Positions 49,653 through 55,700 are shown, counted from the stretch's first letter. The stretch is DNA of 55,700 bases from Minisyncoccota bacterium (GCA_031413715.1 JANOFO010000004.1:1-55700); one strand, 5' to 3'. The notes: generated from the letters alone by a model not told the origin. Made by a program: numbers and translations.

Positions 49653-49765
49653 GTGTTGGCGACAACCTACTTTCCCTATAAAAATAAGTATCATCGGCAT
49701 AACGGCGCTTAACTGCTGTGTTCGGAATGAGAACAGGTGTATCCACCGCATCGAATCACCAACAC
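49653..49765 (-). rRNA. rrf: 5S rRNA
   Basis: Helix I is GTGTTGGTG/CGCCAACAC. The conserved CCTGTTCTCATTCCGAACACAGCAGTTAAGC and GTAGG elements are present. Length about 113 nt. Confidence 0.85.
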
Positions 49766-49844
49766 AAAACTTTTAACTATTATATTTTCAAGACGAGAAA
49801 AAATCAGATATACATGATATCTGAAAACTGAATGCTGGAGGACG

Positions 49845-49873
49845 TCCCACTTCGCTCAAAGAGCTTCGCGGGA
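49845..49873. repeat. 29-nt hairpin element in the 23S-5S spacer (inverted copy of 50272-50301)
   Basis: tcccacttcgctcaaagagcttcgcggga is the reverse complement of 50272-50301 except for a 1-nt indel. Confidence 0.7.
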
Positions 49874-50193
49874 TAAAACAATAATAATGATTTCCATATT
49901 TCCTAATAGGAATCGAACGATTAGTACACCTCGGCTAAAGACATTACTGTCTGTACACCTAGTGCCTATCAACCTAATCATCTCTTAGGTTTCTCAAACG
50001 ATTCCTCATCTTGAAGCTGGCTTCCCTCTTAGATGCTTTCAGAGGTTATCCATTCCCGACATAGCTACTCGGCAATCCAGCGGGCGCTAGAGCCGACACA
50101 CCAGAGGTCAGTTCACTCCGGTCCTCTCGTACTAGGAGCAAATCTTCTCAAGAATCAACGCCTGCAGTAGATAGGAGACCAACCTGTCTCACG

Positions 50194-52012: not shown

Positions 52013-54408
52013 AGGATACCGCCCCAGTAAAACTACCCACCAGATACTGTCTCTCTCCGTTTTTGCCGTAGAGATTAGAACATATAATCACAAAAATTGG
52101 TATTTCACTGACGAGTAGATCAGAGCCGAAACCCTAACCATCAAACCTCTCCCAACTATGCTACGTAGTGTAATCATATGCTCAATATCAAGCTGCAGTA
52201 AAGCTTCTAGGGTCTTTTCATTAGAGTCACAAACAGGACGCAATAATAAAAAAAGTGTACATGCATTAGAGGAAGCGGTTCCCGAGAATGTGTGCACCGT
52301 CCGAAGTTTTTCGAAAGAAAAATGGAAGATGGTTTTCAGATTTCCTAATAGGAAATTAAGAGTATATGGTGGATGCCTAGACTAAAAAAGGCGATGAAAG
52401 ACGTGGCATGGCGGCGATACGTTTCGGGGAGGTGCCTAGCAACCTTTGATCCGGAAATTTCTGAATGGGGAAACCCACTTGCGTAAACCGCAAGTACTTT
52501 CATACTTGATATGAAGGAGCACACCCAGGGAAGTAAAACATTTCATTACCTGGAGGAAAAGAGAAAAATATTTATTTTCTGAGTAGCGGCGAGCGAAAAG
52601 GAAAAAGCCCAAACCGGCCTTTCACAAAGTGAATGATGCAAATCGCATCGTGCATTCTGTGATGGGCCGGGGTTGTAAGGTGACAATGTAGATTTATCTA
52701 GAGGAGTCAAAAAATGTGTTGTTAGATCAAACTTCTGGAAAGGAGTGCCACAGACGGTGATAGCCCGGTGATCGAAAATTTCACGTCTCTTTGATTGTCA
52801 TTCTTGAGTAGCTCAAGACACGAATAGCTTGAGCGAATCCGCCAGAACTAACTGGCAAGGCTAAATACTTTTTTAGATCGATAGTGAACTAGTACCGTGA
52901 GGGAAAGGTGAAAAGAACCCCGATGAGGGGAGTGAAATAGACCTGAAACCATATACTTACAAGGAGTCGGAGCGGGTATTTATATCCGTCACGGCGTGCC
53001 TATTGAAGAATGAGCCAACGAGTTTATCTATGCTGCAGGCTAAGCTGTTAGAACAGTGGAGCCTTAGGGAAACCGAGTGTTAATAGCGCGAACAATTAAT
53101 GTAGTATAGATAAGACCCGAAGCGAGGTGAGCTTGCCATGAGCAGGATGAACCCTGTCGAAAGATGGGGGGAGGTCCGAACCGGTGACCCGTGCAATAGT
53201 CTCGGATGACTTGTGGTAAGGAGTGAAAAGCTAATCGAACCTCGTAATAGCTGGTTCTCTCCGAAATAGCTTTAGGGCTAGCGTCGTGTGTTCCTCTTGG
53301 GGGTAGAGCACTGGAAGGTTTCGACAGGGAGCAATCTCGCGACACCTATCAAACTCCGAATACCAAGAGCTAAAACACGGCAGTTAGGCTATGGGGGCGA
53401 AGCTCCATCAGCCAAAAGGGAAACAGCCCAGATCTCTAATTAAGGTCCCTAAATTTACGCTAAGTGCAAATCAAGGAGGTGAAATTTCTCTGACAATGAG
53501 GATGTTGGCTTAGAAGCAGCCATCATTTAAAGAAAGCGTAACAGCTCACTCATCAAGAGATTTTGCACCGAAAATAATCGGGGCTAAGCGTAGTACCGAA
53601 ATTGAGGGCTTCATGTTTCTTCGGAAATGTGGAGCGGTAGGAGAGTATTCCATACAGCGTCGAAGCTAAAGGGGTGACCCATAGTGGAGCGTATGGAAGT
53701 AAGAATGTTGGCACAAGTAACCGCAAGGAAGGTGAGATCCCTTCCCGCCGAAAGATTCAGGTTTCCTTGGCAATGGTGATCATCCAAGGGTTAGTCGGTC
53801 CTAAGGGGATGGCGAAAGCCGCACTCGATGGGCATAAGGTTAATATTCCTTAACTTCTGTTGTATTCGAAGATGGGACGGAGTGTAGTATATAGAGCTCA
53901 TTATTGGATTTGAGTTTGTAACGTGAGGATACATCCTAGGAAAATCCGGGGTGAACCACTTTAGTGTGGGCTATCCAAGCATTGCATAAATGTTCCGATT
54001 CGTCGGGATAAATTTTATAAAGCACGCTTCCAAGAAAAGCATCTAAGGTTAATGCAATAGAATCCGTACCGTAAACCGACACAGGTAATCAGGTCGAGTA
54101 GACCAAGGCGAACGAGTGAGAGGTCTTCAAGGAACTCGGCAAAAAAGCAGCCGTAACTTTGGAATAAGGCTTGCCGTTCTTGATTTATCAAGATCGGCCG
54201 CAGCGAAAGTATCTCTGGCAACTGTTTATCAAAAACACAGCTCCCTGCGAACTCGCAAGAGGATGTATAGGGGGTGACACCTGACCAATGCCAGAAGGTC
54301 AATTATCGGTGGTCCATGGTCGCAAGATTGTGGGCTGGCTGATACAAGCCCTGGTGAATGTCGGCCGTAACTATAACGGTCCTAAGGTAGCGAAGTACCT
54401 TGTCGGGT

Positions 54409-55141
54409 AAGTGGAACTGCCCATCCCAAGAGTGATTTTGGGATTAAATCTGGCTTATAACGGTGGAATCCTTTTATGTGAGTGCGTAAAATAAAAGGAC
54501 AATACCGTGGGAAGTCGTCGTATCGATAACAATAATTTTTATTGCAGGTACGATTGACCCCGTAACGACTTAGGTCGCCTCTGTATAGTGGCGACCAAGA
54601 TAGATTATTGATATAATCTATAACATGCCGGCTCTCAGTAAAAAACGCAATATACACGAGTATATTTCTGGATATGTAGATGGAGAAGGATGCTTCAGTG
54701 TTTCATTTTCAAAACGAGAAAAATTTCTCGTCGGCTGGGAAACTAAACCAAGTTTCTCGGTCAGCCAAAATGAAGATAGAGCGCAAATCCTTTTCCTAAT
54801 GCAAAAAGTTTTCAAATGTGGATTTATACGACGAGATTATTCTGACAAAACTCTCAAATTTGAGGTGCGAAGTTTAGAAGATCTTGTAAGTAAAGTAATT
54901 CCTCACTTTGAAATGTATCCTCTGCTTTCTCAAAAACAAAAAGATTTTAAATTTTTTAAACAGATTTGTTTACTCATGCAAAGGAATTTGCACACAAACA
55001 AAACTGGATTATTAAAAATTATAAATCTTGCGTTTGCGATGAATCCGAGCGGAAAAAGGAAATACACAAAAGAAGAAATTCAAAAAGCGTTGAGATGAAG
55101 ATATAGTCTGATCCCTCTCGTAAGAGAGGTAAACGAAAATG
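54409..55141 (+). mobile_element. Group I intron with LAGLIDADG ORF at the 23S L1951 site (733 nt)
   Basis: Exons are GTCGGGT|...|AAGTTCCGAC. An aagt repeat at both borders leaves 4 nt of ambiguity, and the U/terminal-G rule selects 54409-55141. J8/7 is GATGAAGATATAGTCTGATC, followed by P9 CCTCTC-GTAA-GAGAGG. Confidence 0.75.
54625..55098 (+). CDS. Single-motif LAGLIDADG homing endonuclease (157 aa, I-CreI-like architecture)
   Basis: It has one YISGYVDGEGCF motif. Its stop codon overlaps the start of the J8/7 element, so the ORF occupies the P8 region. Confidence 0.85.
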   Translation: MPALSKKRNIHEYISGYVDGEGCFSVSFSKREKFLVGWETKPSFSVSQNEDRAQILFLMQKVFKCGFIRRDYSDKTLKFEVRSLEDLVSKVIPHFEMYPLLSQKQKDFKFFKQICLLMQRNLHTNKTGLLKIINLAFAMNPSGKRKYTKEEIQKALR

Positions 55142-55700
55142 AAGTTCCGACGCGCACGAATGGTGTAATGACTGGAGAACTGTCTCGAAGACCTGCTCGG
55201 TGAAAATACAATACCGGTGAAGATGCCGGTTACCTGCAGATAGACGAAAAGACCCTAGAAGCTTTACTGCAGCTTGATATTGAGCATATGGTTATACTGC
55301 GTAGCATAGATGGGAGAGGTTTGATGGTTACGATCTCGGTTGTGATCTACTCGTCAGTGAAATACCATTCTTTGTGACTATATGTTCTAATCTCTAAGGC
55401 AAAAACTTAGAGAGACAGTATCTGGTGGGTAGTTTTACTGGGGCGGTATCCTCCTAAAGAGTAACGGAGGAGTTTATTAAGGTTAGCTAGGCGCGAATGG
55501 AAACCGTGCCGATAGTGTAAGGGCACAAGCTGGCTTGATTGCAACTCGTGCATGAGGAGCAAGTGCGAAAGCAGAACCTAGTGAACCGATGGTACGTATT
55601 AGATGCGGCCAAGGATTAACGGATAAAAGCTACCCCGGGGATAACAGGCTGGTTCCGCCCGAGCGTCCATAGCGACGGCGGAGTTCGGCACCTCGATGTC

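Follow-up and report, generated by a model that had tools for sequence, protein, structure and literature searches.

An intron-rich Paceibacteria 23S-5S rRNA locus that looks like one operon joined to itself in inverted orientation at an 11-nt repeat

The 55,700-nt contig of a Minisyncoccota bacterium analysed here in its entirety (GCA_031413715.1 JANOFO010000004.1:1-55700; hereafter the window) ends in two ribosomal RNA (rRNA) segments that face each other head-to-head: a 5S gene with the 3′ part of a 23S gene on the minus strand, and a 23S gene that runs to the contig end on the plus strand. The locus looks like one ancestral, intron-rich 23S-5S operon of Paceibacteria, within the candidate phyla radiation (CPR), and not like two diverged paralogs. 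In the explanation that we favour, and hold with about even confidence, a template switch at an 11-nt repeat would have linked a single operon to itself in inverted orientation, and the contig end would be a mosaic of other rRNA populations.

According to this explanation, the 3′ third of the 23S, the trailer and the 5S would occupy their native place and orientation, and the leader together with the 5′ two-thirds of the 23S would have been flipped via a single inverted junction at AGGGTCTTTTC. The event would be a polymerase template switch between short inverted repeats ~2.9 kb apart, which could have occurred in the cell, as a fold-back or inverted duplication, or in vitro, as a chimera of the kind formed by strand-displacing amplification. 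Past position 2057, the plus strand would be a mosaic consisting of ~270 nt of a clade-typical allele followed by 180 nt of a different rRNA lineage, which would be consistent with an assembly path that, at a metagenome contig end, passes through rRNA from co-occurring relatives. We infer the template switch, and we likewise infer that the tail is a product of assembly rather than of natural recombination.

The initial annotation described a minus-strand 5S and the last ~850 exon nt of a 23S (about 2057-2904 in Escherichia coli numbering, used throughout), a description that holds. The minus 23S corresponds to 2058-2904 and consists of three exons with a total of ~843 nt. The exon at the 5′ end of the truncated fragment covers 2058-2262 (52013-52219), and is followed by a clade-typical exon for ~2263-2593 (50731-51065) and by one for ~2594-2904 that includes the 3′ strand of helix 1 (49900-50193). 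With Rfam model RF02541, a scan of the whole window returned two matches on this strand (222.9 and 220.2 bits) that jointly cover model positions 2090-2912, and a scan of 49500-52345 alone returned a single match of 437.3 bits that extends to the 3′ end of the model (2925), with reliable homology from about model position 2085. The 23S trailer and 23S-5S spacer (49764-49899) lead to an intact 5S gene (49654-49763; Rfam RF00001, 73.6 bits, above the gathering score, model positions 1-120).

The plus-strand 23S, which had been placed at about 52340, ~120 nt from the point at which the minus homology stops (52219), starts at 52346, and 126 nt separate the two copies. It reaches position 2507 (Rfam model 2533) at 55700 and matches RF02541 over model positions 1-2533 with 1898.7 bits, above the gathering score. 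Since the window is the whole contig, this stop is the end of the assembly and not the end of the gene. Exon 1 (1-1951) lies at 52346-54408 and is clade-typical, as is the segment from 1952 to ~2330 (55142-55520), which overlaps the minus fragment from 55246 onward. The remainder, ~2330-2507 (55521-55700), is of foreign type and forms the contig end. Neither strand therefore carries a complete 23S, as the plus copy stops at 2507 and the minus copy begins at 2058.

The gene content of the window is dense and bacterial, including a type IV secretion system (T4SS)-type pilin, SecDF, FtsW and kynureninase, and the nearest relatives are metagenome-assembled genomes (MAGs) of Paceibacteria/Nomurabacteria-type Patescibacteria. 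A chloroplast origin, suggested by the introns at 1951, 2262 and 2593, was considered and is ruled out by this gene content and by the Paceibacteria MAG relatives. In an NCBI MAG contig (L093; recovered loci carry L numbers) and six other relatives, one strand encodes, in order, L10, L7/L12, a helix-turn-helix (HTH) protein, an MscS-like protein, one 23S, the 5S, a 258-aa protein, FtsW, FolD, PAP2, SecD, SecF and LemA. The single 23S-5S operon of these relatives lies exactly at the site of the minus fragment and in the same orientation. In a Logan contig from a relative with the same gene order and a 57% identical kynureninase, the 3′ end of the 23S is likewise followed by the 5S and kynureninase. 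Among 74 clade loci recovered through the conserved 23S 3′ end, none has 23S pieces on opposite strands in a head-to-head arrangement. Because the minus fragment and its 5S occupy the relatives' sole operon site, they represent the resident locus in its ancestral place and not the remnant of a second operon.

The two arms meet at AGGGTCTTTTC, an 11-nt stretch (52209-52219) that belongs to both contexts, as it is an element of the leader and at the same time the reverse complement of 23S positions 2058-2067. Homology with the leaders of relatives extends over 52209-52419 (91% identical to L055) and homology with the 23S terminates at 52219, leaving an 11-nt overlap. Within the window, GGGTCTTTTC is found only at the junction and in an inverted copy at 55246-55255, the plus copy's own position 2058, with 0.07 copies expected by chance. 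Nine of 10 relatives have kept the leader element, which they carry 125-178 nt before the 23S, and in an operon of normal structure the two copies of the short inverted repeat are separated by ~2.9 kb. The breakpoint, at 2057/2058, coincides with neither an intron site nor a homing site: position 1951 is ~100 nt away and position 2262 ~200 nt. The junction thus combines an inverted join, nearby sites on one molecule and a short complementary sequence, and an inverted join at such a repeat reads as the signature of a polymerase template switch. Fold-back or tandem-inversion duplications that arise in cells at short inverted repeats share the same form.

Upstream of the junction, the plus copy has lost what normally precedes a 23S in this clade. 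In relatives, the sequence upstream of the breakpoint position contains a distal leader motif (TGAAAACTGAATGCTG), which is the 5′ strand of a long processing stem, and a conserved promoter-like site (TTGACT-17-TAGAAT). The plus copy retains just 126-137 nt of proximal leader (52220-52345, 90% identical to the L055 leader), and both the distal motif and the promoter-like site are gone. The motif does occur in the window, solely as its complement within the minus-strand trailer (49822-49837). No promoter-like site was seen on the plus strand of the spacer, and the relatives' upstream genes are absent from the window; a search with the upstream MscS-like gene returned 1,731 homologues, which came without sample labels. 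As assembled, the plus 23S is severed from its native expression signals, and it has neither the promoter of its own nor the full leader, with both strands of the processing stem, that would identify a second operon.

Both arms are nearly free of private changes, counted at columns at least 95% conserved among the relatives. In the minus exons there are no private substitutions (the lone match, at 50640, falls in the intron at L2593), and the final 111 nt of the 23S are 100% identical to nine relatives. The plus copy up to 55520 (23S 1-2330) has two private changes in 1,552 conserved columns, with both found among the 1,268 columns of exon 1 and none among the 284 columns of the following segment. 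The outer ends also match each other. Both the plus leader and the minus trailer belong to the L055 type, the trailer being identical to that of L055 over its first 35 nt and near-identical elsewhere except for an inserted hairpin, and the two carry matching stem strands (CAATAATAA/TTATTATTG) that covary in L019. Cofold energies for leader and trailer were not discriminating; it was the direct sequence comparison that proved informative. The complementarity of the helix 1 flanks pointed out by the initial annotation is real, but the sequence concerned is conserved clade-wide and nearly palindromic. Joined up, plus 1-2057 and minus 2058-2904 make one clean, clade-typical 23S with matching ends.

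Both copies had been expected to cover about 2057-2500 with 10-20% divergence and many paired, structure-preserving differences, and these expectations are borne out. The overlap (2058-2507) is a gapless 455 nt with 50 mismatches, or 89.0% identity (92.8% in the initial 208 nt, 85.9% in the final 248 nt). Fifteen double changes, which account for 30 of the 50 differences, preserve Watson-Crick pairing in both copies; among them are the example singled out earlier and the helix 89 variant. Decay of either copy into a pseudogene is ruled out by these compensatory differences and by the minus exons, which lack private changes. The differences occur in clusters: 15 fall in the variable helices 76-78, the 112 nt that surround the 2262 site have none, the following 152 nt have 35, and the last 28 nt are free of them. 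The identical 112-nt stretch is 100% conserved in close relatives. In helices 76-78 the states are mosaic across relatives, and lineage placement of the two alleles is uninformative.

The last 180 nt of the plus copy are of a different character. They are 80-82% identical to relatives that match the rest of the plus copy at 94%, whereas the minus copy over the same stretch (2330-2507) is 97-100% identical to those relatives. Of the plus copy's 14 private changes, 12 are located here, in 138 conserved columns. The segment is internally compensated, but its contribution to helix 74 is not: in the plus copy, pairs 55257-55636 and 55259-55634 are C-A mismatches, with the tail strand CCCCGGGG, of the general bacterial type, opposite the clade-specific CCCUAGAAGC, whereas the minus copy pairs normally. 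As the foreign tail mispairs with the clade-type strand of helix 74, the plus copy is itself a mosaic of two rRNA lineages and lacks the co-evolved helices that a resident second copy would have. The helix 89 variant of the tail occurs in Giovannoni-, Niyogi-, Ryan- and Terrybacteria MAGs with an overall identity of 80-85%, and no close donor of the last 180 nt was found among the lineages with this variant.

The proposal of two resident paralogs, or of the remnant of a second operon, is therefore not supported: the minus fragment is undecayed and at the relatives' sole operon site, its end matches that of the plus copy, and the excess divergence comes down to the last 180 nt. Acquisition from a relative, also raised initially, could explain those 180 nt and only those.

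Helix 74 differs between this clade and bacteria in general. In the clade type CCCUAGAAGC pairs with CUCUAGGG, compared with CCCCGUGGA and CCCCGGGG in the general bacterial type, and the clade-specific form is a marker of the rRNA of this Paceibacteria group. The two strands lie at 55252-55262 and 55630-55637 in the plus copy, and at 52203-52213 and 50880-50887 in the minus copy.

Other assemblies reproduce one side of the locus. Logan unitigs (SRR20217197, SRR20217205) match the gene side and the 2262 intron perfectly (100% identity). Their breaks are in the 5S and, on either side of the 2262 intron, exactly 30 nt beyond its ends, in sequence that equals the allele lacking the intron, which indicates that related rRNA alleles co-occur in those samples. 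A literature search with the run accessions turned up no publication. With the exact spacer pattern as query, neither GTDB species representatives nor JGI contigs yielded the junction, and a generalised pattern retrieved only a normal 23S (L091) from GTDB species representatives and JGI metagenome contigs. For open reading frames (ORFs) that span the junction or lie in the plus copy, a search of public assemblies found none on record. The minus-copy endonuclease, a 208-aa protein and kynureninase are on record from both NCBI and Logan, whereas the plus-copy endonuclease has an NCBI record only and is absent from Logan assemblies that hold the neighbouring proteins. This absence hints, if weakly, at a lower or uneven depth of the plus copy.

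Intron content differs between the copies as the initial annotation stated (about L2262 and L2593 in the minus copy and L1951 in the plus copy). The group I intron at 2262/2263 is 947 nt long (51066-52012, minus strand; Rfam RF00028, 81.8 bits) and contains an intact 201-aa LAGLIDADG_2 ORF (51073-51678, minus strand; Pfam PF03161, E = 2e-44). A homologous intron, 80% identical, occupies the same site in L046, and the intron is also represented by an independent Logan unitig (L003). The intron at L2593 (50194-50730, minus strand, 537 nt), with boundaries set from the intron-less L050, has no ORF and gave a weak group I match (31.1 bits, below the gathering score); nearly all clade loci have an intron at this site. 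In the plus copy, the 733-nt group I intron at L1951 (54409-55141; 36.5 bits, E = 1.4e-7, below the gathering score), with boundaries set from L019, carries a 157-aa LAGLIDADG_1 ORF (54625-55098, plus strand; Pfam PF00961, E = 1.1e-24). All three have a U at position -1 and a terminal G. They have the sequence features of group I introns, two of them with predicted LAGLIDADG homing-endonuclease ORFs. Introns at 1931, 1951, 2263 and 2500 recur among the clade loci, a pattern with which a survey of CPR rRNA insertions is consistent (PMC11270868), and for CPR bacteria there is nothing out of the ordinary in the introns or endonucleases themselves.

An extreme intron load is seen in L092 (ENA ERZ1292627, Hainich groundwater; positions 1-4600), where a single 23S has four LAGLIDADG ORFs (157, 195, 174 and 163 aa) in its 3′ part. 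Within the L2593 intron of the window, a tRNA-like cloverleaf lies at 50386-50462 on the minus strand. It scores 34.8 bits with the Rfam tRNA model (gathering score 29) and its minimum-energy fold is a cloverleaf (-25.5 kcal/mol), but it received no ARAGORN call and no BLAST match in the relatives' loci. The same intron contains one of two copies, in opposite orientation, of a ~30-nt hairpin, CCCGCGAAGCTCTTT(C)GAGCGAAGTGGGA. One copy is at 50272-50301, and the other is at 49845-49873 in the 23S-5S spacer, where it is the insertion relative to the otherwise near-identical trailer of L055. This hairpin may represent a small element that is mobile or prone to recombination.

On the minus strand, the intact 5S is followed directly by a decayed 3′ part (~60%) of a second 5S (49533-49645), which forms a direct repeat (D1) with the intact gene. 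It is 70-73% identical to the 5S 3′ parts of relatives over ~90 nt and 94-97% identical over the last 30 nt, although a scan with the Rfam 5S model gave no match at these positions. Its 3′ end, GTCGCCAGAACAAAG, is of the relatives' type, whereas the intact 5S terminates in GTCGCCAACACAAAG. The presence of this remnant beside an intact gene suggests an earlier partial duplication or replacement here. A similar remnant may exist in L064, ~150 nt past its 5S.

Elsewhere in the window, nearly all genes in 1-49452 are on the minus strand, and the only tRNA gene of the 55.7 kb is a tRNA-Ser (GGA) at 35267-35355. A kynureninase gene adjoining the rRNA locus is common to some relatives only.

The leader element at the junction deserves separate mention. 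Its core GGGTCTTTT (52210-52218) is exactly complementary to 23S positions 2058-2066, which form part of the peptidyl-transferase loop, and is present in L019, L028, L046, L050, L053, L055, L076, L080 and L093. It could be a boxA-like antitermination site or serve in pairing between leader and rRNA during assembly. Position 2058 is the macrolide site. A conserved leader element complementary to the A2058 region may merit attention of its own.

Several observations weigh against a template switch followed by a mosaic contig end. An assembler writes a junction only if reads contain it, and since contigs normally follow the path with the best support, the junction may be the predominant form in the sample and thus a real arrangement. 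From the contig sequence, an origin of the switch in vivo cannot be separated from one in vitro. Folding back a single gene predicts identical arms, yet the observed identity is 89% over 455 nt. For the 15 compensated differences in helices 76-78, another population or recombination would have to be invoked, and the arms agree with the prediction only on the assumption that other populations or later recombination supplied the plus tail. Within the 112-nt stretch, exact matches to the distant lineages compared are only 15-36 nt long, and a switch in the assembly graph there needs a short k. The absence from Logan is weak negative evidence.

The main rival explanation, which we regard as possible, if rather doubtful, is that the contig is correct as it stands, in line with the paralogs of the initial annotation. 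A complete or near-complete plus 23S would then lie head-to-head with a truncated, older 3′ fragment and its 5S, parts of one arm having been rewritten by intron homing with exon co-conversion or by uptake of foreign rRNA DNA. The junction must be in the reads, since the assembler traversed it, and in the contig each helix 76-78 allele runs on into a sequence of its own. Compensation extends to every paired difference, so both copies derive from working rRNAs, and the decayed 5S shows that the locus had been rearranged before. Intron homing and horizontal spread are, moreover, common in CPR 23S genes (PMC11270868). However, this explanation leaves a plus copy with no distal leader or promoter-like site and with a mispaired helix 74, a supposedly older minus fragment that is undecayed, an arrangement found in no relative and in none of the other assemblies searched, and a plus endonuclease missing from Logan assemblies. 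A pure misjoin, with no physical molecule behind the junction, would assign the genes, 5S and 23S 3′ part to one organism and the leader and plus 23S to another, related one. The co-occurrence of related rRNA alleles in the sample, the contig end within an rRNA gene and the clearly mosaic tail all speak for it, yet the 11 nt shared at the join are far under the usual k-mer size, so that a de Bruijn graph needs reads containing the junction, and leader and trailer are of the same L055-like type, which points to one source operon. We therefore consider it improbable.

Two further explanations rank lower still. The initial annotation linked an inversion or ectopic repair to homing-endonuclease cutting, whereby a double-strand break in the 23S would have been repaired against the wrong template to give an inverted copy. 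The locus does have three group I introns, two with intact LAGLIDADG ORFs, but the break is removed from the 1951 and 2262 sites by the distances given above, 2057/2058 is not among the sites named in the main text of the CPR survey (PMC11270868), and the inverted microhomology with the leader explains the junction by itself, which makes this account very improbable. At the far end of the range, and the least probable of all, is a working split 23S. In this case a real, fixed inversion would have produced divergently transcribed pieces (1-2067 and 2058-2904) that assemble in trans via helix 1, the leader-trailer stem and the helices of domain V, and noise from the assembly would account for the plus tail past 2067. 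In favour, the two halves are pristine and jointly form one clade-typical gene, and leader, helix 1 and trailer are complementary across the pieces. Known natural rRNA breaks, however, lie in variable surface regions, and here the break is at A2058, within the central loop of domain V, a conserved part of the peptidyl-transferase centre. No promoter is visible ahead of the 5′ piece, the plus strand continues through 2058-2507 rather than ending, giving pieces that overlap by ~450 nt, and the pristine state of both halves is just as compatible with a very recent event or one in vitro. Of the origins first suggested for the locus, an inversion-type event and an assembly chimera both retain their place, and it is the two together, a template switch within one operon and a mosaic contig end, that make up our preferred reading.

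For genome interpretation, the locus is a warning about quality, as rRNA at the contig ends of CPR MAGs can mimic a diverged second operon where there is a single operon with an inverted junction and a tail drawn from other populations. A phylogeny built on either 23S piece of this contig would be misleading, as would a count of two rRNA loci in this genome. Should the junction be real in cells, it would be a clean natural case of an inverted rearrangement by template switching at a 10-11-nt repeat, in an rRNA operon that is usually single-copy in CPR bacteria, and one would have to ask how 23S is still made in the cell.

The locus can be compared with four known systems. With fragmented and scrambled rRNA genes, such as those of organelles and the bacterial 23S genes fragmented by intervening sequences (IVSs), it shares two pieces on opposite strands with complementary ends; it differs in the ~450-nt overlap and the break in the peptidyl-transferase loop, and in that neither a promoter for the 5′ piece nor an IVS-type processing site was seen in the window. 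It resembles chimeric rRNA at metagenome contig ends in that a 23S is cut by the contig end, the final 180 nt are of another lineage and the change of lineage falls within the 112-nt stretch that is 100% conserved in close relatives. Unlike such chimeras, it has a distant donor, and exact matches of 15-36 nt would call for a small k or for natural recombination.

The junction has its closest counterpart in the chimeras formed by multiple displacement amplification (MDA), of which >85% are inverted, most are intramolecular and >70% have 2-21 nt of complementarity at the junction (Lasken and Stockwell 2007, PMC1855051). The inverted join described here, with partners ~2.9 kb apart, has 10-11 nt of complementarity, within that range. 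The two differ in that the arms of the window are 89% identical, which needs a second explanation. The introns, finally, resemble the group I introns with LAGLIDADG ORFs surveyed in CPR/Patescibacteria 23S genes (PMC11270868) in their sites (1951/1952, 2262/2263 and 2593), in their single-domain LAGLIDADG_1 (157 aa) and LAGLIDADG_2 (201 aa) ORFs, in the occurrence of both ORF-bearing and ORF-less forms and in their clustering in the 3′ part of the 23S. The main text of that survey names sites 1917, 1931, 1952, 2593, 2604 and 2657 and not 2262/2263, yet L046 has a homologous intron at exactly this position.

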